Shown: positions 646 through 42,611 of the stretch, one piece after another
Layout of the letters: every line of letters starts with the position of its first letter
Numbering within the stretch: position 1 is the first letter of the stretch
IMG/VR virus record: IMGVR_UViG_3300033075_001196
Span: 60,388-124,387 of that record
Source: a virus
Taxonomy: Duplodnaviria; Caudoviricetes
DNA length: 64,000 nucleotides
Direction: 5' to 3' (one strand)
The notes under the pieces: model-generated
Database searches by the model: none
Told to the model about the DNA's origin: nothing
What the model saw: only the letters and a program-made list of their open reading frames with translations
Program-made: the position numbers and the translations under genes

Positions 646-1340
646 TTTGAAATATTTAAATAAAAATTATTTTGTTTAATTTGCTTTGCAAATGTCTTTT
701 GATGTATTAAGCTGAATTTTCTATTAGATGTAACATCTTTAATATCTGCTGTTCCAATTACAGTAGCCCGTTTATAACCTGTTATTTTTTCATGGACATG
801 TCCAGTCCATTTAATTCTTTTTAAATTTTTAAAAATCCTCAGTTGTAAATCAGGCCAATTTATAATTGGTTCACCTTCATATTGATTGGAATGATCTACA
901 TTCCATCCAATTGATTGGGCATATGATAACTCTAAATTAGAAACTGTATTGACTCTTGGTAACCAAAAGGCTTCAATATCTGGATTTTCTTGTATTATAT
1001 CATGAATTAATAACAAATATGTTCCTAAATTTTCATCAGCATCAATCTGGAAAATATATTCCTTCGTACATTCTAATTTTAAATTGTTTTTAAAAGATGC
1101 AAAATCCCCATTAAGTGGAAACATAATGTGAGATATAAATGGATATTCATGTTGTAATTCTTCTATTAATTCTCTAACTTTTAAAGTAGAATTCGTTTCA
1201 TCAACCTGAATAACTATTTCATCATGTTGTTTGACAAATGGAATCAATTGTTTTATCAATGATTTTAATTCATCATGTTCATCACACACCGTAATTGCAA
1301 ATGATATGGATGGTATTTTATTTTTGATCATCTTCTTCAA
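642..1340 (-). CDS. Glycosyltransferase family 2
   Basis: N-terminal SFAITVCDE, FASFKN, IDADE (DxD), WPDLQLRIF, WTGHVHE motifs. Confidence 0.85.
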   Translation of the reverse strand: MKKMIKNKIPSISFAITVCDEHDELKSLIKQLIPFVKQHDEIVIQVDETNSTLKVRELIEELQHEYPFISHIMFPLNGDFASFKNNLKLECTKEYIFQIDADENLGTYLLLIHDIIQENPDIEAFWLPRVNTVSNLELSYAQSIGWNVDHSNQYEGEPIINWPDLQLRIFKNLKRIKWTGHVHEKITGYKRATVIGTADIKDVTSNRKFSLIHQKTFAKQIKQNNFYLNISK

Positions 1341-1818
1341 CTAAACTATTGTATAAATCAAATGCCTCTTCAAATTGTATTTTATCAAAAACTTTAATGG
1401 GAACATTATTTACTTTAAATAGACCCATTTCTTCTTTTCCATTTACTACGATTGGCAGATTAACCACAAAATGCGTGTTAATATCTTCTTTATCTTTCAA
1501 TTTTTCTACTTTTGATACACCCCATTTGAATCCTTGAATTTGATCAGCAATTGGAAATAGTACCCCGGAATGTTTAAACGCCAAGATTGGATACCATATA
1601 TTACCAGTAACAGTATCAATGAATTTAAATGGTAATATGTATGCAGGCAATTGATTTTCCAATTCCTGAATGGCTTCTGGTGAATTAATTGTCCACACAT
1701 CTTTCATGTTTTGGTAACCTGTACCTAAATCCATTCTATATGAGTCCTCAACTAGAACGGTTAATTCTCCAGTTATTGGAGAAAACTCATCGAATGAATC
1801 CTTTACTTCTTCTCTCAT
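1318..1818 (-). CDS. Hypothetical protein
   Basis: 166-aa ORF overlapping neighbours in the operon. Confidence 0.7.
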   Translation of the reverse strand: MREEVKDSFDEFSPITGELTVLVEDSYRMDLGTGYQNMKDVWTINSPEAIQELENQLPAYILPFKFIDTVTGNIWYPILAFKHSGVLFPIADQIQGFKWGVSKVEKLKDKEDINTHFVVNLPIVVNGKEEMGLFKVNNVPIKVFDKIQFEEAFDLYNSLVEEDDQK

Positions 1819-3122
1819 TGTTCTTTAAATTCTGGTATTTTGAATGTTGTTAATTCTGGGCTAGAAATTAATTTAGTTTCTTTAAATTGATCTAAATTAT
1901 TAAAAATATCCTCTATTTTATTTTTCATCATTTCTAATGAAAATTTATTTTTTGTTATATTAATATGTTTTTTGGAAGTATCCAAAAATTTCGCATACAA
2001 TTTATGACATGAATCTAAAATTTGTGAAGCGTATGTATAGTTTACTGTGAACCAACCACTTTCAGCCATTATCCAATTATTAACTGCTGATGGTGCTACC
2101 TGAGTTATTTGTCCTGGTAATAAATAACAAGCTTCTTGATTAAGAAAATCCAATTGACCTGACCATCCTGACGCAATGACTGGTTTGCCAGTTGCAGTAA
2201 ATTCTAATAATGGCCTACCAAATCCTTCCCCCTTAGTAAAGGATACCATTGCTTTAATTTTTTCATGATTGTATAATGAATTCATTTCATTGTCTGATAA
2301 TTCTCCGTGAATTACATAAACATTTGGTAATGACCCCTCATGCCCCTGATCTTTAATCAATTCACCAATTGTTTGTATTTTATTTTGTAGAGATAACAAT
2401 TCCAAATTGCTAAAATTTGCATGAGATGTTTTTAAAACTAATGCAGGTCTGTTTTGGGGTGCCTTTCTTTTAAATGTATTATAGAATGTATGTATTAGCA
2501 TACCTATATCCTTTCTATCAGCACCCAAATCTCCTTGTAACCAATGCCCAACAAACAAAAATGCATAGTCCTCGGTAACTGTTTTCATTAATGAATTTAC
2601 TGTAGAATCATTGCAAGTTATCTTTTTAAATATGTTGGTATCAATACCTTCAAACAACACCTCACAAGGAGCTGTTAATTTTAATACTTCGATAACTACA
2701 TCAGATCCTTCATTTTTCTTTTCAAATATAGTTGATTCGAATACCCGCTTTGAATGTTCTGACGATGTTAGCACTAAATGCATTCGATTACAACCTTCTA
2801 TCCATTCAGGTTTGCATAATGTTGTTTCTATTCCTGCAGTTAATCCAATATTATAATCTCCAACCGCTTGAAATTCATTTGGTATTGTACATTGGATCCA
2901 AATCTCTGGTTTATATGTTAATTGAGGAATTATCCTTTCATGAATGGCTCTGTGTTTAGGATCAGTCAACACTAATGCTGTTTGGGGAGTATCTCCCCAT
3001 GGTGTCGCTATGATATCAACATCATAACCCAAATCTATTAATGATGAAACAAAATCTCTAGACCTTGCACCGTAACCGCTTAAAGTTCTTACTGGTGCGG
3101 CGATTGTAACTTTTTTATTCAT
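1815..3122 (-). CDS. Glycosyltransferase, GT-B fold (GT4-like)
   Basis: SGYG N-terminal motif, RKDIG, KGEGFGRPLLE..GKPVIASGWSG. Confidence 0.88.
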   Translation of the reverse strand: MNKKVTIAAPVRTLSGYGARSRDFVSSLIDLGYDVDIIATPWGDTPQTALVLTDPKHRAIHERIIPQLTYKPEIWIQCTIPNEFQAVGDYNIGLTAGIETTLCKPEWIEGCNRMHLVLTSSEHSKRVFESTIFEKKNEGSDVVIEVLKLTAPCEVLFEGIDTNIFKKITCNDSTVNSLMKTVTEDYAFLFVGHWLQGDLGADRKDIGMLIHTFYNTFKRKAPQNRPALVLKTSHANFSNLELLSLQNKIQTIGELIKDQGHEGSLPNVYVIHGELSDNEMNSLYNHEKIKAMVSFTKGEGFGRPLLEFTATGKPVIASGWSGQLDFLNQEACYLLPGQITQVAPSAVNNWIMAESGWFTVNYTYASQILDSCHKLYAKFLDTSKKHINITKNKFSLEMMKNKIEDIFNNLDQFKETKLISSPELTTFKIPEFKEQ

Positions 3123-8186: not shown

Positions 8187-8927
8187 TTATGATTTAAGTT
8201 CCGTTAAAATTTCGATAAACATAGCCATTACACCAATTTCTTTATCTACAATTTGATTATCAAACTGCATTGTTTTTGCTATAGCTAATATAGTAGCTGC
8301 CTGATGTCCATTTTTTGCAAATTCGTCTAAATTATCATATAAAAATCTATACAATTCTTCAAATGATTTGACTCTGGATTCAGCAATTATTTTTCTAATA
8401 TTTTTAAATGCGTCAGGTGGGTTTTTAAAAGTTTTCAATTCTTCTAAAATATCATCCATATAATTGGCAGCGGCTGCTATTTGGGCGTCTAATTTTAATG
8501 TTCCTGATTTGCTTAAACTTTGTAAATTATTTATTATCCTTCTCATGTCTGGATAACTTCTATTAATTACTGATGCAACATCCTTTTTTTCATATTTTAT
8601 ACCTTCCAAATCCAAAATCTCTATACATCTCTTTGCGACTTCACCTTTATTTGGGGGAAGTATATGAAATGGAACACACCGAGATTGAATTGGTTCTATT
8701 ATTTTTTCAACATAGTTGCAAGTTAAAATGAATCTTGCTCCTTTAGAAAAGGTTTCCATTAAATTTCTCAAGGCAGCTTGGGAATTACTAGTCATGAAAT
8801 CACAATTATGAGTCAAAATTCCAGAGCCTATAAAAAAATTATGATTTTTTTGCACTGATATATCATATACTTGATTGGTATCACCTGTTTTCGTGATTGA
8901 TATTATTTTTATTTTTTTTAATTCCAT
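8187..8927 (-). CDS. Clamp loader ATPase (gp44/RFC small subunit), C-terminal half preceded by a 41-aa C-intein
   Basis: VYDISV..HNFF..ILTHN|CDFMT followed by QAALRNLME, FILTCNY, IQSRC (SRC motif). Confidence 0.93.
   Translation of the reverse strand: MELKKIKIISITKTGDTNQVYDISVQKNHNFFIGSGILTHNCDFMTSNSQAALRNLMETFSKGARFILTCNYVEKIIEPIQSRCVPFHILPPNKGEVAKRCIEILDLEGIKYEKKDVASVINRSYPDMRRIINNLQSLSKSGTLKLDAQIAAAANYMDDILEELKTFKNPPDAFKNIRKIIAESRVKSFEELYRFLYDNLDEFAKNGHQAATILAIAKTMQFDNQIVDKEIGVMAMFIEILTELKS
8805..8927 (-). mobile_element. Split intein C-fragment (41 aa) of the clamp loader
   Basis: Blocks F/G: VYDISVQKNHNFFIGSGILTHN, Cys at +1. Confidence 0.92.
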
Positions 8928-10152
8928 TATATACTTTTTGTAATTGCATTATATTTTCTCCTTCAAAATCAATATTATTTATATAAGATAATATATTATC
9001 TTCATTTATCCAAATAAATTTAATTATATTTTTTAAACAATATTCAATTACTTGTTGCATTTTATTATCTTGGGCTGCCCATGTGCTTTTTGGTTTTACT
9101 TCGTATATAATATTTTTAGATTTATCATAAAAATCAACAATATATGAATGGGATTTCAATTCTGAATCGATCCATGGAATTCTTATTGTTTCAAATTCTA
9201 AATGTTTATTACTATTCCAGAATACTGCTTCCCAACTACTTCTGAATTTTTTAATAGATCCATCATCTAATATTATGCGGGCAGACCAATGGGTTCTAGT
9301 ATTTGTGATATATGGTGTAAATTCTCCAATGGCAATTTTGTGTTTCATAATCTCTGAATTTTTATGAGCTCTCTTTTTAAGATTATCTTTGCCTCTGTCT
9401 GTTTGATTAAATAATTTCATTTTAATAGAATTGATAGCCCCAACTCTCTTTAATATGGTCTGGCCAGCTTCTGTTTGATTTGATATTTTTCTAGTGGCAG
9501 AGGCCTTTTTGCATTTGATATTATAATCATAATATTTTATCCAAACACGATTTTTCTCGCATTCATCACAACAATTATTATAACTACCATGAAACTGTCT
9601 ATTATATTGTTCTATAAATTCAACACCACAATACTTGCATTTGGGTATTGGTATTTTCCATACTTGTGTCCCAATATATTGTAATATATTTGAAACTAAA
9701 TTATGATTAAAGTGAATATCTAAGTGACTAGACAATCCAGAAAGCGTTTTAAATTTTTTACCACAATATGGACATTGATTTTGTTGATTATACAAAATAT
9801 TTTGATAATCTTGTATTGGTTTATTTACTTTAAATTTTCTACATTTTCCAGAGGTGCAATAAGTTTTTTTAGTTTTGCTTTTGAATGGAGTATTGCAATT
9901 TAAACATATACAATCTATTAGTTTATTTTGATTTTTTATTATTTTTAATCTTCCTATTTCTCGATTAGCACATATATTACATCGTTTAACATATCCTCGA
10001 ACATAACTAATAAAACTTGATGGTTTGCCACAATCTACACAAAATTCTTCATTTAGTTGTTTTATAAAAGTATCATAATATTCTCTTATGGATATTTTAT
10101 GTTTTCTTAAATGATTTTTATTTAATTTCTCCCCACAAATATTACAATTCAT
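8881..10152 (-). CDS. Free-standing homing endonuclease (multiple Zn fingers + TnsA-like PD-(D/E)XK domain) between the split-intein halves
   Basis: Several CxxC and C2H2 motifs; FRSSWE..YIVDF..YEVKP. Confidence 0.82.
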   Translation of the reverse strand: MNCNICGEKLNKNHLRKHKISIREYYDTFIKQLNEEFCVDCGKPSSFISYVRGYVKRCNICANREIGRLKIIKNQNKLIDCICLNCNTPFKSKTKKTYCTSGKCRKFKVNKPIQDYQNILYNQQNQCPYCGKKFKTLSGLSSHLDIHFNHNLVSNILQYIGTQVWKIPIPKCKYCGVEFIEQYNRQFHGSYNNCCDECEKNRVWIKYYDYNIKCKKASATRKISNQTEAGQTILKRVGAINSIKMKLFNQTDRGKDNLKKRAHKNSEIMKHKIAIGEFTPYITNTRTHWSARIILDDGSIKKFRSSWEAVFWNSNKHLEFETIRIPWIDSELKSHSYIVDFYDKSKNIIYEVKPKSTWAAQDNKMQQVIEYCLKNIIKFIWINEDNILSYINNIDFEGENIMQLQKVYNGIKKNKNNINHENR

Positions 10153-10226
10153 ACTAATTTAGATTTATATTTACAACATATTTCGTATATAAATATACCC
10201 TTAACTAGTTAAAAACTCAATTTATA

Positions 10227-10865
10227 TTAAACAGGAGATAAAATATGATTATATTTATGTAAATCAATAGTTTTTACTATTATAACTTCATTTTTATCAT
10301 TATAAACAAACCATTTGTGTTCAGAAGTGCATCTAACCAGTTCTTCATTTTCTAACTGTATTTCCCATATTTCTTTAACACCCTTATTAAAAAACTTAAA
10401 TGGCTGCCATTCTATTTTGTTTGTTTTGATATTATATGATTTAACCAAATCATTAGATTCATCCAATTCTTCAATTGGTATTGCAATTTCAATTCCTGCT
10501 CTTAATATGTAAACTAATGTGCCTTTTTCTAAACATTCATCTAAGATTGTAATCTTCCATTTCTTAAATCCAACAGTACTAACAAAATTAGTAACCTTTG
10601 TCCTAATAGTATCAACATTATTTTCTGATGATGCATTAATATATAGAAAATCACAATCTAAATGATTTGCTATTAGTTTAGCTGCGGTCGTCTTTCCCGT
10701 TCCTGGTTTAGCTCCGAATAATAATAAATGTGGTATTTCACCCTCATTTAAATAATTCTGCAGCCTTTCTTTGAAATCCTCATTACCCACATATTCAGAT
10801 AATTTGGATGGGCGGTATTTTTCAACCCATAAATTGTTTATAATCTTATTGGACATCCTTAACAA
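10227..10865 (-). CDS. Clamp loader ATPase (gp44/RFC small subunit), N-terminal half + 102-aa N-intein
   Basis: WVEKYRP, PGTGKTT Walker A, NAS, ILDE|CLEKGTLV...CTSEHKW. Confidence 0.93.
   Translation of the reverse strand: MLRMSNKIINNLWVEKYRPSKLSEYVGNEDFKERLQNYLNEGEIPHLLLFGAKPGTGKTTAAKLIANHLDCDFLYINASSENNVDTIRTKVTNFVSTVGFKKWKITILDECLEKGTLVYILRAGIEIAIPIEELDESNDLVKSYNIKTNKIEWQPFKFFNKGVKEIWEIQLENEELVRCTSEHKWFVYNDKNEVIIVKTIDLHKYNHILSPV
10230..10535 (-). mobile_element. Split intein N-fragment (102 aa) of the clamp loader
   Basis: Block A CLEKGTLV, block B VRCTSEHKWFV, then stop. Confidence 0.92.
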
Positions 10866-37462: not shown

Positions 37463-38500
37463 ATATTTCTAATCTATTGTAACTGTTGTGAAGCCAAGTG
37501 TGTGGATCCTTAATCATTGAATTTAATCCATCTTCAAAAAACATTTCTAAAAATTTCTTCTTATCTAAAGTGACATCATCTCTTATTTTATTCAATATAT
37601 TCAATTTAGCATGGGCTGATATATCTGTTACTCTTAGCTGCATCAATTGATAATTCAATTTAATTTTTTCTGTTGATTCCATTATAGTGGAATATATTTT
37701 TACTTTTGGAAATTCAATTGCCTTTAATTTTGTTATTTCTATAAATTCATCAACGCTTAATTCACTATTAATAAATTCAGGATATCTTTTTAACATTGTT
37801 TTCAATCCAATTCCATTTACTCCAGGAATATTATCAGATGCGTCTCCGATCAATGTTCTATAAATTAAATAATTTTTACTTAGAAAACCAAATTCCTTTT
37901 CAATTAATTGTCTTGTATATGATAGTTTTTTAATAGGACTCCATACTGTTACATCATCAGTCACCAACTGAAGAAAATCTCTGTCACTAGAGCAGATTGT
38001 AATTTTACTATTAAATTGTCTAAAATGTTCAATTAAATATGCTACCGAATCATCTGCTTCAATATTATCTACAACCACAACTGATATTGGTAATGTATCA
38101 AGATATTGAATTATTCTACTGAATTGGGCTTTCATTGATTTTTGTTCATCTATCAAATCTCGAAATTCATCATGGCGATTGAATCTTGTTGTATTTTTTC
38201 GATTGGCTTTATACTCAGGATATATTTTTCTACGCCTTTGGGATCCGCCGACCCCATCAAATACAACTATACATTTAGTTGGTAGCTCCTTTCGGATTAA
38301 TGCCCCAATTGATCTTAAAAATCCAACAACACCACCAACATGATCTCCATTATCATTTAATGATGGGACGTTGCTAAAAACACGAATAAAAGTGTTTGTC
38401 AGGTGCCGTCGATGATGAGAACTCTACTATTAGTAGTATATGGTTCTCCATCGACGGCATATAAATTGTTAAATATTGTTAATAAATGATCTTTATTCAT
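37449..38500 (-). CDS. 5'-3' exonuclease/flap endonuclease (T4 RNase H/PolI N-domain-like), split over two frames at 38404-38397; ~348 aa if joined
   Basis: Frame 1 from ATG 38500: ...RVLIIDGT-TGA; frame 2: (T)NTFIR..GGVVGFL..VVFDG..RRKIYPEYKANR..EADD..SSDRD..GDASDNIPGVNGIG. Confidence 0.9.
38404..38459 (-). other. Coding-region RNA hairpin (11+6+5 bp) ending at the frame break
   Basis: TGCCGTCGATG/CATCGACGGCA, GAGAAC/GTTCTC and TACTA/TAGTA inverted repeats. Confidence 0.9.
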
Positions 38501-39459
38501 ATGATAATTTTTTGTTTTATAAAATCTATTATATTTTCAGCCGTCTCCAATTCTCGTTGCCATATAATCAATAATTCGTGTCCTGAATCGATAGCTAATT
38601 GATTTTTCTTTCGGTCTGTTTCCCAAACATCTTTTGCATATCTATTCATACTATTATCATAATAATTAGAATCATATACTTCAGGATCCATGTGCCAATA
38701 TGTTCCATTAAATTCAATTACTAAATTTAGCTCAGATACAAATATATCAAACGGCCGGCCTTTAATTATTTTTTCTGATTCAATTGTATATCCTAAATCA
38801 ATTAATGTGGTTTCAATTAAAATATGACCTTTACTTTTGAATATTGGTTTATGAATACCATCTACCCATTGTTGTTTGCAAATTTTAGATAATTTAGCCC
38901 TTGTCTCGGCAGACGCTTTATAATTTTCAGGCATACAATTTCCTCTAGCCCTTGCAGATGCTGATTGTAATACTCGAGTTTCTTCCGAAATTGCTTTACC
39001 TATTTGATTGGCTGAAATCTTTGCTTTAGTTTCTTCAGTGTGCCACACTTTATTGTTATTACGCCGTGATTCAACTCGTTTGGCTGCTGCTTCCTTAGTT
39101 CCGTTTTTTGGTGCACAATATGTTTCCATATTATGCTTAGAAAGTTTCTTCAATTCTGTAATGTAGTCGATGTTATCAAGATCATTCCAGAATTTATTTA
39201 TTGAAATTGACATTTTCAGTTTTGATGCATCACTATATTTGATAGGTTTACTATTACGAATATTATTAGCTACTTTACCTTGCAATGATCTTAAAGTTTT
39301 TTTTAAAACGGACCAATCATATGTTTGAAAAAATGCATGCATTAATGGAGTAAATTCAGCCTTTGTCATTTTCATACTTTTACGATATGAATTTAGTCCA
39401 AAAATTGGAATATTAATATCCATTAATGCATTATACATTTCAATTACTAATGTGTCCAT
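38497..39459 (-). CDS. Homing endonuclease (NUMOD3-like repeats + Vsr/DUF559-like domain)
   Basis: HTEETKAKIS, SEETR, SAETRAKLS; FDI..IEFNGTYWH..D..K..G..IIW. Confidence 0.82.
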   Translation of the reverse strand: MDTLVIEMYNALMDINIPIFGLNSYRKSMKMTKAEFTPLMHAFFQTYDWSVLKKTLRSLQGKVANNIRNSKPIKYSDASKLKMSISINKFWNDLDNIDYITELKKLSKHNMETYCAPKNGTKEAAAKRVESRRNNNKVWHTEETKAKISANQIGKAISEETRVLQSASARARGNCMPENYKASAETRAKLSKICKQQWVDGIHKPIFKSKGHILIETTLIDLGYTIESEKIIKGRPFDIFVSELNLVIEFNGTYWHMDPEVYDSNYYDNSMNRYAKDVWETDRKKNQLAIDSGHELLIIWQRELETAENIIDFIKQKIII

Positions 39460-40328
39460 TATCCTTCTTCTGATACAAAGTCTTCATCTGAAACTGTTAT
39501 GTCGTCCACTCCAAAATCTTCATTAACTTTATATTTCATAATCAATGCATTACATAAAATGTCATATAAATAATCATGCAACGGTTTGTTATGAATCAAT
39601 AAATTAGCAAAATCCTTAGAATAGAATTTCAATTCATCTATGCTGGCCAATTCTCCGGTTTTAGGATTAACTATTTCCATTTTTGGAAAAGTTAAATGAT
39701 ATCCGTTTCCACTTTTAATAATCAATTTATGACTTTCTAGTGTATCTATCCAAGAACCATAATCATCAATCCCAGAATTAAAATAAATATCATAATCGAC
39801 AGTCCTTAATGGTGGGCCTAACCGGTTTTTTACAACTTGTGCCCTAGTTTTTATACCAACTATTTCATCTCCCGATTTCATTTTCACCTTAATTTGGCCC
39901 AAGGATTTTAATCTAATTCTAACTGATGCATGAAATGCCAAGGCTTTACCACCACTAGTTGTATTATGATTAATCCTGCCATTAGCATTATATGTATGTG
40001 AATTGGCTACTTCAATATCCACTACTTGCATTCTGCCGAAGGTCTTAACAAATTCTGGATGGTCTTTAAGATAAATTTCTTTATCTGCTTCCATAATTCT
40101 GTGATTTGCAGTACCTTTTAATATTCCATCAGTATAAAATTCTTCTACTGATTCTTTGACTACAAAACTTTTAATTGGATTATAGGTTAATTCACCATTT
40201 ACAGTCGTTTCAACTTCAATTCCTAATTCACTGACATCATAAATGTCAGGAGTTTCAAAATCATTATTCATTGCAAATCTTTCTGAAAATTCTGCTAATG
40301 TAATTTCTTCATAAATAAATTCGTCCAT
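39459..40328 (-). CDS. recA: RecA/UvsX C-terminal half preceded by a 122-aa C-intein
   Basis: GTANHR (block B), VVDIEV..HTYNANGRINHN|TTSGGKALAFHASVRI, VKNRLGPP. Confidence 0.93.
   Translation of the reverse strand: MDEFIYEEITLAEFSERFAMNNDFETPDIYDVSELGIEVETTVNGELTYNPIKSFVVKESVEEFYTDGILKGTANHRIMEADKEIYLKDHPEFVKTFGRMQVVDIEVANSHTYNANGRINHNTTSGGKALAFHASVRIRLKSLGQIKVKMKSGDEIVGIKTRAQVVKNRLGPPLRTVDYDIYFNSGIDDYGSWIDTLESHKLIIKSGNGYHLTFPKMEIVNPKTGELASIDELKFYSKDFANLLIHNKPLHDYLYDILCNALIMKYKVNEDFGVDDITVSDEDFVSEEG
39963..40328 (-). mobile_element. Atypically split intein C-fragment (122 aa)
   Basis: Contains blocks B, F and G; ends in HN; Thr at +1. Confidence 0.9.
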
Positions 40329-41065
40329 AATATTTTTTTTATTTCGTCTATGTTATTGTTAATTTCGGTTTCCCATAATATAATATATTTAAAGTTGTTT
40401 TCCAAAAATTTTGCCTGTTTTCTTTCATCTCTTTCCCAAATTTTATTTACAGGGGCTCTGAACACTGTTTTATTTGCATCAAATATATCTGGATTAGCAT
40501 GCCAATAATCTCCGTATACCTCAACTACAGCATGTTGTTCAGGCAAATAAAAGTCTGGAATATATGTTAATGATCCGAATGTGAATGGCTTCTCATATTC
40601 GAATTTTAAATTAAATTCATCTAATATTGTCGCAATTATATATTCTAATGAATTCATATTTATTCCTTTAAAACAATATTGTTTATTCCTTGCAGAATAT
40701 AACATTCTTTTAAATTTTTCAACATCATTCAATTTAGCATCAGCCCACATTTTCTTTGCTTTTTTAGAAATTTTTTCACACCGTTCACTTGATTTCATTG
40801 ATGTCATAAATTTTTCTTTAAATGTTGGATCCGCCATATTGGCTTTATTTTTTATAACTGATTTAACATATGCTCCAGATGCCCTTCTGTTTTTAATTTG
40901 CTGATCGGAATATTCTTTATCCTTCCAACGATCACTATTTTGTTTTCCTATTATATACTTCCATTTATCTGATCTGATTTGGTATTTCTTTCTAACATCA
41001 ATTGATGCGTCAAGACTTTTATATAAGAATAGGAGGAAATTGTCAATCGTTTGAAACTTTATATC
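40295..41065 (-). CDS. Vsr/DUF559-like homing endonuclease between the RecA intein halves; frame is open up to 41065 but the first ATG is at 40837
   Basis: MNSLE..YIPDF..VEVYGDYWH..ILWE; 76 extra stop-free codons upstream with no ATG/GTG/TTG. Confidence 0.78.
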   Translation of the reverse strand, partial: DIKFQTIDNFLLFLYKSLDASIDVRKKYQIRSDKWKYIIGKQNSDRWKDKEYSDQQIKNRRASGAYVKSVIKNKANMADPTFKEKFMTSMKSSERCEKISKKAKKMWADAKLNDVEKFKRMLYSARNKQYCFKGINMNSLEYIIATILDEFNLKFEYEKPFTFGSLTYIPDFYLPEQHAVVEVYGDYWHANPDIFDANKTVFRAPVNKIWERDERKQAKFLENNFKYIILWETEINNNIDEIKKILWTNLFMKKLH

Positions 41066-41789
41066 TTATTTTTATTTTTGTAGATAATGGGTCTACACAA
41101 TATGGATCTCCAAACATTGCATTCATCTTCACTCTTAGCTGATTAGTAAATATTAAACATATATTTTCTTTACTAATCATTCCAGTAATCTTCCTCATTG
41201 CTTTTGATAAAATAATAGCCTTATCTGTAGCATATCCATCTTTAGCATAATCAGCTTCCAACTCCTTTAAAGTAGTGGCGCCCATTACTGAATCTACTAA
41301 TATTGTTACTAGTTTTTTCTTATCTGAAGATCTCACTTTTTCAATTATAGCCTCAATCGCATCAAATATATCTTCCAATGCTTCTAATTGAAGATACATT
41401 AATTTAGTTATGTCAACTCCTATAGCAGCTAAATATTCCCTACTTACTGCAGATTCTGTGTCAATGTATACCGCGATACCGCCTTTCTTTTGGGTATTTG
41501 CTAATGCATACGCCCCTAATAAACTCTTACCAGATGCCTCTAATCCTGTTATTTCAATGATTTTACCTACTGGCCATCCGCCATGTGGTCTATTACTAAC
41601 TCCAATGTCTAGTAATGTGTGGCCAGTAGGTATCCAATCTTTAACATCAGTGGCAACATTTGGATCTGATAAATAATATGCAGCCTGGTGACCGTGATCC
41701 TTAAATTTTGTATTGATTGCTGAAATCAATTCAGATGATAATGCATCAACGATTGCAGGTGCAACCTTCTCATTCTTATTCTTTGCCAT
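41043..41789 (-). CDS. recA: RecA/UvsX N-terminal half + 18-aa N-intein
   Basis: IPTG..LD, GLEASGKS, YIDTE, VDSV, FTNQLR..FGDPY|CVDPLSTKIKIRYKVSND*. Confidence 0.93.
   Translation of the reverse strand: MAKNKNEKVAPAIVDALSSELISAINTKFKDHGHQAAYYLSDPNVATDVKDWIPTGHTLLDIGVSNRPHGGWPVGKIIEITGLEASGKSLLGAYALANTQKKGGIAVYIDTESAVSREYLAAIGVDITKLMYLQLEALEDIFDAIEAIIEKVRSSDKKKLVTILVDSVMGATTLKELEADYAKDGYATDKAIILSKAMRKITGMISKENICLIFTNQLRVKMNAMFGDPYCVDPLSTKIKIRYKVSND
41046..41099 (-). mobile_element. Atypically split intein N-fragment (18 aa)
   Basis: Block A-like CVDPLSTKIKI directly after RecA GDPY. Confidence 0.85.
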
Positions 41790-41804: not shown

Positions 41805-42611
41805 TTATTTAAATAAATCGTCGAAATCAGAATCATCAACTGTGGTAGAAGCCTTGATTGGTTGTTTCTTAGTTGGTTTGACTTCAGGAATATCATCATA
41901 ACTAACATCTTCATCAAATACTGACTTTGATGTTGCACCGTCTGCTGGTGCGTCTTTGTCTTCTGCTTCTTCTGAATTATTTAAGAAATTTTCCAACATT
42001 TTTTTCAATTCATCATATGTTGGTTCTGGCCATAATGTATTAACATCAGGCATTTCTTTAATCAAGTCCAACACTTCCTTTTTAGAAGTCATCTCAGTTT
42101 TGTCAGGTTTAACTCGAATCATGATATCTGGCCAAGGTTTTTCTGTTTTAATAACTTCTACAGTTATATCTCGACCATTTTTTGGATGACTGATATCTCC
42201 GTAATCTGGATCGTCAATTACCTTTAATAATTCTTGATAAATTTGTTTTCCAAATCCCCAAAACTTAACTCCTTCTTCCTCTTTACCTCTCACTAATATT
42301 GGTATATAAGTTCTAGGTTTTGCTTGCATTGATACTGCAGTTTTCCAATCTTCCTTTTCACCAGTTGCCTTTAAAGTATCTACAAATTCTTGAACTGGAT
42401 CTGGTTTGCCAAACGATATTGGAGATAATATTGTTTGGTTTTTTAATTTATAATAAAAAAATAGCTCAATAAATGGCCAATCTTTATTATGTAAATAAGG
42501 CAACATTCTAATAATATGTTTACCCGGTGTTGGAGTCCATCTCCATTTGCTACCTCCGCCCTTGGGGGTTTCTAAAGCTGAAAGTTTTTGTTTGATTTTG
42601 TTTAAATCCAT
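41805..42611 (-). CDS. Single-stranded DNA-binding protein (gp32-like)
   Basis: W.P..G...IR.LP, FWGFGK, YGDI..GRDI, acidic tail DFDDLF. Confidence 0.85.
   Translation of the reverse strand: MDLNKIKQKLSALETPKGGGSKWRWTPTPGKHIIRMLPYLHNKDWPFIELFFYYKLKNQTILSPISFGKPDPVQEFVDTLKATGEKEDWKTAVSMQAKPRTYIPILVRGKEEEGVKFWGFGKQIYQELLKVIDDPDYGDISHPKNGRDITVEVIKTEKPWPDIMIRVKPDKTEMTSKKEVLDLIKEMPDVNTLWPEPTYDELKKMLENFLNNSEEAEDKDAPADGATSKSVFDEDVSYDDIPEVKPTKKQPIKASTTVDDSDFDDLFK

Follow-up and report, generated by a model that had tools for sequence, protein, structure and literature searches.

The sole RecA in the 124-kb virus record from which our window was taken (the whole 64,000-nt stretch analyzed) is encoded in two pieces with another gene lying between them. 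How could such a locus yield a recombinase? We propose, with a probability of roughly 85%, that this RecA/UvsX gene is a "fractured gene," in which a class-1 mini-intein occupies loop L2 (GDPY/TTSGG, the slash marking the insertion point) and has itself been interrupted at S1 by a Vsr-like endonuclease gene. Phage metagenomes contain many loci of this already known type, and the split RecA adds one more case.

Both halves are full-length open frames on the minus strand, as read from the ORF listing and the raw sequence. The RecA-N ORF (41043..41789, 248 aa) encodes a 230-aa RecA/UvsX N-extein (41100..41789) that contains Walker A/B, loop L1, and the first half of loop L2, ends in FGDPY, and is followed by CVDPLSTKIKIRYKVSND and a TGA stop. 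This N-extein matched positions 5-200 of the Pfam RecA profile (E 5e-37) and the UvsX-like recombinases of PHROG 97 (E 4e-46), and it aligned to Escherichia coli RecA as far as MFGNPE. The RecA-C ORF (39459..40328, 289 aa) ends with a 167-aa C-extein (39462..39962, stop codon 39459-39461) whose first residue is Thr+1 (TTSGGKALAFHASVR); it matched Pfam RecA positions 198-262 (E 5e-14), and its alignment with E. coli RecA begins at TTTGGNAL. Between them, the halves span the RecA profile completely, neither duplicating nor omitting any part of it. A blastn search of the region against isolated phages returned only a 15% match, to RecA of Microcystis phage Mel-JY01, and no close cultured relative.

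In phmmer searches against E. coli RecA structures, ...MFGDPY paired with ...MFGNPE, and NHN-TTSGGKALAFHASVR paired with NPE-TTTGGNALKFYASVR. The alignments of both halves therefore indicate that removal of 140 residues restores loop L2 with no residue gained or lost, the insertion site being GNPE/TTTGG of the E. coli protein. The insertion is missing in homologs, including phage alleles that are intein-free at the same junction (L057, ADPY/TTSGG; L069, SDPW/TTSGG), and the conserved host motif is restored exactly. A preliminary description of this DNA had given the C-terminus of RecA-N, which proved correct to the residue, and had predicted that ligation would rebuild GDPY-TTSGG in L2, which the E. 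coli RecA alignments and the two intein-free alleles corroborate.

The N-terminal intein fragment, IntN (41046..41099, minus strand; stop codon 41043-41045), comprises 18 aa (CVDPLSTKIKIRYKVSND) and carries block A with Cys1. The Cys1 codon (41097-41099) directly follows the N-extein, giving FGDPY/C-V-D-P-L-S-T as expected of block A. The C-terminal fragment, IntC (39963..40328, minus strand), comprises 122 aa with helix α1 (EEITLAEFSERF), block B (GTANH), block F (VVDIEV), and block G (NGRINHN). None of its 122 residues is cysteine, and TTSGGKAL comes next. Block B provides the Thr-x-x-His signature as G-T-A-N-H, and block G ends in a penultimate His and a terminal Asn (NGRINHN/T); the +1 residue is Thr here and Ser in L097. 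His76 is invariant in alignments A1, A3, and A5, as are Asp104, His121, and Asn122 of IntC. By sequence, the insertion shows every feature expected of a class-1 intein. The single IntC sequence reached an E value of 0.9 against Pfam Intein_splicing, short of significance.

IntN has a net charge of +2 (+3 for its first 15 residues) and IntC of -15 (-8 for its first 30 residues). The earlier account of a cysteine-free IntC, a 140-aa total (18 + 122), and a basic IntN facing an acidic IntC start thus stands. Its 18-residue N-fragment is right as a length, and the working IntN consists of 15 core residues followed by a 3-residue tail: a contiguous mini-intein (L003) whose first 15 residues are identical to those of the window's IntN runs from ...RYKV straight into IEEEITL.

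We found 51 IMG/VR loci with an intein at the L2 site, recognizable by the motif CVDP..T..KI.Y directly after RecA L2. Contiguous mini-inteins of 133-151 aa account for 11 of the 51. Some 40 loci are split, with an IntN of 15-41 aa (15 being the commonest length) and with or without an endonuclease gene; wherever a split locus retained enough downstream DNA, IntC-RecA-C lay downstream on the same strand. The order N-half, endonuclease, C-half recurs in L001 and L002 and also in about 20 other loci, where the gaps measure approximately 875-1150 nt. The break falls at one variable loop and takes three forms: an IntN of 15-18 aa with an endonuclease gene, an IntN of 28 aa with a 65-106-nt spacer, and an IntN of 32-41 aa with overlapping stop and start codons. 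Intein-free, contiguous, split with endonuclease, and split without endonuclease alleles therefore coexist at a single site. Forty-six cluster representatives were recovered at E <= 1e-30, of which about 27 begin with IntC, and 32 protein clusters show the split arrangement while retaining the catalytic residues. The charge pattern is likewise family-wide (mean of +2.0 for IntN and -5.3 for the first 30 residues of IntC).

Across 26 metagenome C-fragments and 30 IMG/VR inteins, Cys1, His76, Asp104, His121, Asn122, and Thr/Ser+1 vary little or not at all, and they persist in split and contiguous alleles whose overall identity is only 30-60%. This conservation bears on the possibility that the intein pieces hold the RecA halves together without splicing, either as a non-covalent two-chain recombinase or as a mere dimerization device. 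The strong charge complementarity of IntN and IntC would favor tight binding even in an unspliced complex. However, binding alone would not require these six residues to be conserved, and RecA-DNA structures such as 3cmu suggest that a 140-residue domain left in L2 would probably block DNA binding. We consider this explanation very unlikely.

When the family profile was searched against the PDB, it retrieved inteins only (the Spl DnaX mini-intein at E 3.5e-5, gp41-1 at 0.023, and CatC at 0.074); a phmmer search of the contiguous relative (the L003 allele) against the PDB matched no intein. We modeled the window's IntC and this relative, the latter as a proxy for the fused intein, using AlphaFold 2. 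The IntC model had a pLDDT of 91.7, with VIA Z scores of 13.4 to PI-PfuI (the best fit; 116 residues, 2.2 Å), 11.2 to VidaL (6vgv), and 8.7 to PolB16 (8cpo). The model of the contiguous relative had a pLDDT of 88.7, falling to 64-74 over the first 20 residues, so that the IntN strands are only moderately confident. Its best 50 Foldseek rows were all inteins or HINT-type domains, with VIA Z scores of 9-12.4 (best fit: Z 12.4, 113 residues, 2.8 Å). More than 60 intein or HINT chains had a VIA Z of at least 8 across the two models. The models thus support a HINT fold for the window's IntC and for its contiguous relative, one of the outcomes on which the preliminary reading as an intein had been made to depend.

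Residues 1-125 of the IntC model superpose on VidaL 6vgv chain residues 17-144 (rmsd 2.5 Å over 106 residues). Residue 1 of the model pairs with residue 17 of VidaL and residue 15A of PolB16; in other inteins it pairs with residue 11-13. Helix α1 spans IntC residues 11-18. The models place the break between strand β2 and helix α1, which is the S1 site used by VidaL and PolB16.

The gene between the RecA halves (40295..40837, minus strand) is free-standing, encodes 180 aa from its first ATG, and shares 34 nt with the beginning of RecA-C. The product matched the endonuclease families PHROG 559, 22677, and 13076 (E 2e-10 to 1.5e-6); matches to Pfam Vsr (E 0.014) and DUF559 (E 0.038) were below the cut-off. 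Alignment A4 shows invariant D95, E106, G109, W112, H113, and D137, which correspond to the Vsr-like motifs described in PMC2677866. [quoted passage not shown] Upstream of its ATG, the same frame, which is +1 relative to RecA-N, remains open for 76 codons (40838..41065, minus strand) without an ATG, GTG, or TTG, its first codon lying 23 nt ahead of the RecA-N stop. The 362-aa L002 endonuclease aligns through its residues 130-186 with residues 20-76 of this stretch, and the endonuclease frame as a whole is 44% identical to that protein over 227 aa (E 9e-62). The stretch is thus probably an endonuclease remnant, and otherwise a spacer between IntN and the endonuclease. The lack of a canonical start over the 76 codons, together with the missing N-terminal domain, suggests that part of the cassette is decaying. 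An Rfam search found nothing at gathering scores in the whole window and nothing at E <= 1 in 37900-41200, and no intron was detectable. We also rejected an intron in the neighboring RNase H/FEN gene, in which an apparent 242-nt gap is a frame break.

The truncated appearance of the endonuclease could also mean that recA is dead, broken by endonuclease invasion, and that the phage uses the RecA of its host or a recombinase encoded in the missing part of its genome. The frame break in the RNase H/FEN gene fits such decay, and the incompleteness of the record (69% complete) leaves room for a second, intact recombinase gene elsewhere in the genome. However, both fragments are full length and together match the RecA profile throughout, and decay would not preserve the split layout and intact catalytic residues across some 40 divergent loci of IMG/VR as well as 32 protein clusters. 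A dead gene is, in our view, about as improbable as unspliced association. Least probable of all is joining at the level of RNA or translation, by ribosomal bypass or by a +1 shift at GAT-TGA-C through which RecA-N-IntN would be fused to the frame that lacks a start: the 76 open codons invite this idea, but they are accounted for by a 5' deletion given their homology to the L002 endonuclease, the L001 and L002 endonuclease ORFs are separate with their own ATG about 30 nt past the IntN stop, no RNA family was found around the locus, and the fusion would still stop short of IntC.

We therefore return to the fractured gene and infer that the RecA halves are joined by trans-splicing. The translation products would be a 230-aa RecA-N bearing the 18-aa IntN and a 122-aa IntC joined to the 167-aa RecA-C. 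Since each polypeptide has only part of L2 and of the ATPase core, neither should function by itself. The basic IntN would dock as strands β1-β2 on the acidic, otherwise complete IntC and close the HINT fold. Cys1 would then form a thioester by an N-S acyl shift, the Thr+1 hydroxyl would attack this thioester to give a branched ester, and Asn122 would cyclize with the help of His121 to release the intein. A final O-N shift would convert the junction to a standard Tyr-Thr peptide bond, completing a recombinase of 397 aa. The endonuclease gene, whose product is presumably active, would be the mobile agent behind the split; since it looks 5'-truncated, the split is probably now fixed and not actively homing.

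Fractured genes were described in 2009 by Dassa, London, Stoddard, Schueler-Furman, and Pietrokovski, whose paper was also the first to describe the Vsr-like endonuclease family (PMC2677866). As in the window, those genes consist of an N-half with IntN, a free-standing endonuclease gene, and IntC with a C-half, on one strand and in this order, and the Vsr-like endonuclease ORF overlaps the IntC start (PMC2677866). RecA/UvsX is not among the eight enzyme types that host them, and UvsX appears only as a neighboring gene (PMC2677866); in contrast, the window's split falls in RecA/UvsX, after about 15 intein residues. The spacer also differs, being a 205-nt start-less open frame in the window and 27-51 nt in the published cases (PMC2677866). 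Among the open-access papers searched, none pairs UvsX with a split intein inside UvsX itself. Thiel et al. reportedly listed "VidaL UvsX" inteins in 2014, among which the L2 intein may already figure.

The architecture most closely resembles that of VidaL (PDB 6vgv/6vgw; Burton et al. 2020), which the passages on it in PMC13014065 describe as a natural, Cys1-dependent split intein with a 16-aa IntN and a break at S1. Both inteins depend on Cys1 by sequence or report, have a very short IntN, and are cut at S1 after strand β2; the window's intein differs in its Thr+1, its cysteine-free IntC, and its insertion site. VidaL 6vgv, which was in the searched set, did not match the window's intein family by phmmer or by family profile at E <= 10, and structure-based identity between VidaL and the IntC model is 17-21%. 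The preliminary assignment to the VidaL type thus holds for architecture and S1 position (VIA alignment) and fails for sequence kinship. The L002 RecA contains another atypically split intein, in its P-loop, and this one did match VidaL weakly (E 0.0025) over the full IntC length. The contrast between these two results argues that the L2 intein, at its separate site, belongs to a lineage of its own that shares the VidaL architecture. We suggest, only tentatively, that the L2 RecA/UvsX intein may represent an uncharacterized lineage without sequence kinship to VidaL and that its members may have become split at S1 on more than one occasion.

PolB16 OarG is also a natural S1-type split intein, and its 15-aa IntN, reported as the shortest characterized (PMC10189870; PDB 8cpo), has exactly the IntN length of most relatives of the window's intein. 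It is a cysteine-independent Ser1/Ser+1 intein of a PolB polymerase with a 168-aa IntC, whereas the window's is a Cys1/Thr+1 intein of RecA with a 122-aa IntC. AceL-TerL, GOS-TerL, and the consensus Cat (PDB 6dsl) are, like the window's intein, atypically split and from phage metagenomes. Cat was the top Foldseek match of the contiguous relative (23% identity) in addition to its weak profile match. These inteins are split at S2, after helix α1, with an IntN of 25-37 aa, in the terminase large subunit (PMC13014065), in contrast to S1 and RecA in the window. Mycobacterial RecA inteins (Mtu RecA, PDB 2in0, and others) are class-1 inteins in RecA with a HINT match at Z ~10, but they are contiguous, large, and endonuclease-containing, occupy other RecA positions, and have no detectable sequence relation to the window's intein. 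The M. leprae RecA intein lies in the same loop, a few residues upstream.

Few natural split inteins have an IntN short enough for synthesis (VidaL, 16 aa; PolB16, 15 aa; AceL-TerL, 25 aa; PMC13014065, PMC10189870). The rarity ascribed to such inteins at the outset does not extend to nature, given the approximately 40 split loci in IMG/VR alone. For protein engineering, the family supplies many natural 15-18-aa IntN variants, each with a cysteine-free IntC and Thr+1. The alleles coexisting at one site are a clear natural record of the fractured-gene route to split inteins, and the loop after strand β2 emerges as a second permissive site for endonuclease insertion; knowledge of intein mechanism is unchanged. 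If the L2 intein is indeed an uncharacterized, repeatedly split lineage, it would offer a natural series for the birth of split inteins with contiguous ancestors still extant, and a ready trans-splicing pair with a 15-aa IntN, a cysteine-free IntC, and a Thr+1 that leaves no Cys scar.

As noted in the preliminary description, the phage carries a second, differently split intein. This companion element, separate from the RecA locus, is a canonically split intein in a clamp-loader gene (8187..10865, minus strand), with a 102-aa IntN after ILDE and a 41-aa IntC ending in THN before CDF; a 423-aa endonuclease gene separates the halves. Its charges (IntN -4, IntC +2) have the opposite polarity to those of the RecA pair, which supports the presumed orthogonality of the two inteins. 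A member of the L2 family thus shares its phage with a canonical split intein that should not cross-react, and, on the tentative reading of a repeatedly split lineage, the two may be naturally orthogonal.

A second free-standing endonuclease gene (38497..39459, minus strand) lies directly downstream of RecA-C, its ATG overlapping the RecA-C stop (TAATG). The 320-aa product combines NUMOD3 (Pfam E 3e-4) with a Vsr-like core and matched the homing endonucleases of PHROG 22677 and 3339. It is related to the intervening 180-aa endonuclease (E 1.6e-10) and has the same conserved core in alignment A4.

In the window, the RecA/UvsX recombinase is encoded by two genes, RecA-N (41043-41789, minus strand, 248 aa) and RecA-C (39459-40328, minus strand, 289 aa). 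The phage gene is fractured by an atypically split intein of the S1 type, a kind of element that is already known. The ORF listing places every gene between 38.4 and 42.7 kb on the minus strand. In transcription order, a gp32-like ssDNA-binding protein gene (41805-42611) is followed by RecA-N, 205 nt devoid of start codons, and a 180-aa endonuclease ORF (40295-40837). RecA-C comes next and starts within that ORF, the two sharing 34 nt. Its stop codon overlaps (TAATG) the ATG of a second endonuclease gene (38497-39459, 320 aa), which is free-standing, Vsr-like, and carries a NUMOD3 motif; an RNase H/FEN gene comes last. At its C terminus, RecA-N reads FGDPY and then CVDPLSTKIKIRYKVSND before the stop codon. 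The first 122 residues of RecA-C lack cysteine, contain GTANH, VVDIEV, and NGRINHN, and are followed by TTSGGKAL. The preliminary description of these ends was accurate in all details. No other RecA was found in the virus record containing the window (124,387 bp, 69% complete).

The two fragments together cover the Pfam RecA model: the N fragment accounts for profile positions 5-200 and the C fragment for 198-262. When aligned to E. coli RecA structures using phmmer, ...MFGDPY pairs with ...MFGNPE and NHN-TTSGGKALAFHASVR pairs with NPE-TTTGGNALKFYASVR, placing the 140 extra residues exactly between residues 4 and 5 of the loop L2 sequence G-N-P-E-T-T-T-G-G. Uninterrupted genes in related phage contigs read ADPY|TTSGG (L057) and SDPW|TTSGG (L069) across this site. 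Some relatives carry a group I intron in recA besides the split intein, five codons past the intein site (after TTPGG/TTSGG). The intron of L086 (660-982, plus strand) matches Rfam RF00028 with 70.9 bits (E = 2e-16). At the same position, L082, L115, and L122 have an insert of ~1.1 kb with an endonuclease ORF of 290-330 aa, L124 shows the same broken match, and L104 has an insert of ~280 nt with no long ORF. The coding sequence of loop L2 is a hot spot for inteins and introns alike.

Because a Pfam Intein_splicing scan of the single sequence was not significant (E = 0.9), the case for a split intein, as originally proposed, rests on four other lines of evidence, all of which support it. First, the sequence has every position that defines a class-1 intein, namely Cys1, the block B Thr/His, the block F Asp, the penultimate His, the terminal Asn, and a hydroxyl residue at +1, the first C-extein position. 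These positions vary little or not at all, both among 26 metagenomic C-fragments with 50-70% identity across the intein and among 30 intein sequences from IMG/VR loci. Second, in the PDB a profile of these 30 inteins matched nothing but inteins and intein-like domains, among them the Spl DnaX mini-intein (E = 3.5e-5), gp41-1 (0.023), and CatC (0.074). Third, the related IMG/VR locus L003 has a single frame of 511 codons (stop to stop) containing a contiguous 133-aa mini-intein at the same site; its residues 1-15 are identical to those of the window's IntN, and residue 16 onward (IEEEITL...) aligns with IntC residue 5 onward. An AlphaFold model of this L003 intein (pLDDT 88.7) yielded only intein or HINT-type domains among its best 50 Foldseek matches, and VIA-align gave Z scores of 9-12.4 to more than 60 such domains. 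Fourth, the model of the window's own IntC (pLDDT 91.7) aligned with PI-PfuI (Z = 13.4, 116 residues, 2.2 Å), the Aes123 PolB1 intein (Z = 12.1), and VidaL (Z = 11.2). We infer that the mechanism is ordinary class-1 trans-splicing.

Most inteins aligned with the IntC model only from their residue 11-13 on, indicating that IntC lacks strands β1-β2, which would be supplied by IntN. The matches to VidaL (IntN of 16 aa) and PolB16 (IntN of 15 aa) start at chain residue 17 and residue 15A, respectively, which are the starts of their own IntC pieces. Helix α1 is formed by residues 11-18 of the window's IntC. Under the definition in PMC13014065, the predicted structure thus places the split at the S1 site and not at the S2 site of AceL-TerL. 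Relative to the contiguous L003 intein, the window has three additional residues at the IntN end (SND) and four at the IntC start (MDEF). The three at the IntN end suggest that the working IntN comprises 15 residues.

Despite the shared split architecture, the L2 intein appears to be a lineage apart from VidaL. Neither phmmer nor the family profile reached VidaL, although the structures searched include its crystal structure, whereas the IntC of a P-loop intein in the related locus L002 matches VidaL (6vgv) over its full length, if weakly (E = 0.0025). This second atypically split intein, also with a short IntN, breaks RecA-N itself (1149-2378, plus strand; GWEA|CVTEDTIIDVIIE*), and the L002 recombinase is consequently encoded in three pieces. 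Inteins named 'VidaL UvsX-1/-2' were reportedly listed from metagenomes by Thiel et al. in 2014.

A search of IMG/VR with a degenerate DNA pattern for IntN returned 51 loci, every one with RecA L2 sequence preceding the match. The intein is contiguous in 11 loci (133-151 aa), with the surplus length in the loop past residue 15. It is split in the other ~40, where IntN is 15 aa in 22 loci, 16-18 aa in nine, and 22, 28, 32, 36, 39, or 41 aa in the remainder. IntC-RecA-C lies downstream on the same strand in all split loci except six, in which the available DNA stops within ~730 nt of IntN. Approximately 20 split loci have an IntN-IntC gap of ~875-1150 nt, room for an endonuclease gene; in others the gap is 392 or 536 nt, or 65-106 nt, and in five the IntN stop codon overlaps the IntC start. 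These spacings and IntN lengths indicate that breaks in the loop after residue 15 come in at least three different forms and that split alleles endure without any endonuclease. Among 1.84 billion cluster representatives, the family profile matched 46 proteins at E ≤ 1e-30, of which ~27 start with IntC and ~19 contain the intein internally. Worth noting are the core IntN of 15 aa, the combination of a cysteine-free IntC with Thr at +1, and the survival of contiguous and endonuclease-free alleles.

Also worth noting is that the same phage has a canonical split intein of opposite polarity, which fractures the clamp-loader (RFC/gp44-like) gene (8187-10865, minus strand). Its IntN (102 aa) follows ILDE, its IntC (41 aa) ends in THN before CDF, and a gene for a 423-aa Cys-rich endonuclease lies between the halves, overlapping the IntC start. 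Net charges are +2 (IntN) and -15 (IntC) for the RecA pair and -4 and +2 for the clamp-loader pair, an inverted polarity by which mixed pairs would repel. This makes cross-complementation unlikely, as does size: the two short pieces total only 59 residues, and the two long pieces duplicate the core. Piece sizes and charges therefore lend support to the orthogonality presumed in the preliminary description.

The 180-aa endonuclease between the RecA halves matches PHROG endonuclease families (E = 2e-10) and, weakly, Pfam Vsr (E = 0.014); an alignment with five relatives shows no variation at D95, E106, W112-H113, and D137. Ahead of the first ATG, the endonuclease frame stays open for another 76 codons (40838-41065, minus strand), none of them ATG, GTG, or TTG. 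This stretch starts 23 nt ahead of the RecA-N stop codon, in the +1 frame, and most of it shows homology to the 362-aa endonuclease of L002 (residues 130-186). Homology to the middle of a longer protein gives the gene the look of a 5'-truncated one rather than that of a recoding signal. The simplest reading of the sequence is that a 5' deletion took the original start along with the N-terminal domain, which would leave a nuclease core translated, if at all, from the internal ATG. Geometrically, a +1 shift at the IntN stop could lead into the endonuclease frame, but nothing speaks in its favor.

The second endonuclease gene recalls T4 segA, which adjoins uvsX (PMC2988022), and a Vsr-like ORF or remnant also lies just 3' of recA in L003 and L005. 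The RNase H/FEN gene is broken just past LIIDG (window ~38390-38500, minus strand). No intron was detectable, and this explanation was rejected in favor of a frame break, for which a sequencing error, a frameshift, or loss of gene function (a pseudogene) could account. A stop follows the first 33 codons (38399-38500), and the remainder resumes in another frame from NTFIRVF, with 43% identity over 319 aa to the homologue in the related locus L001.
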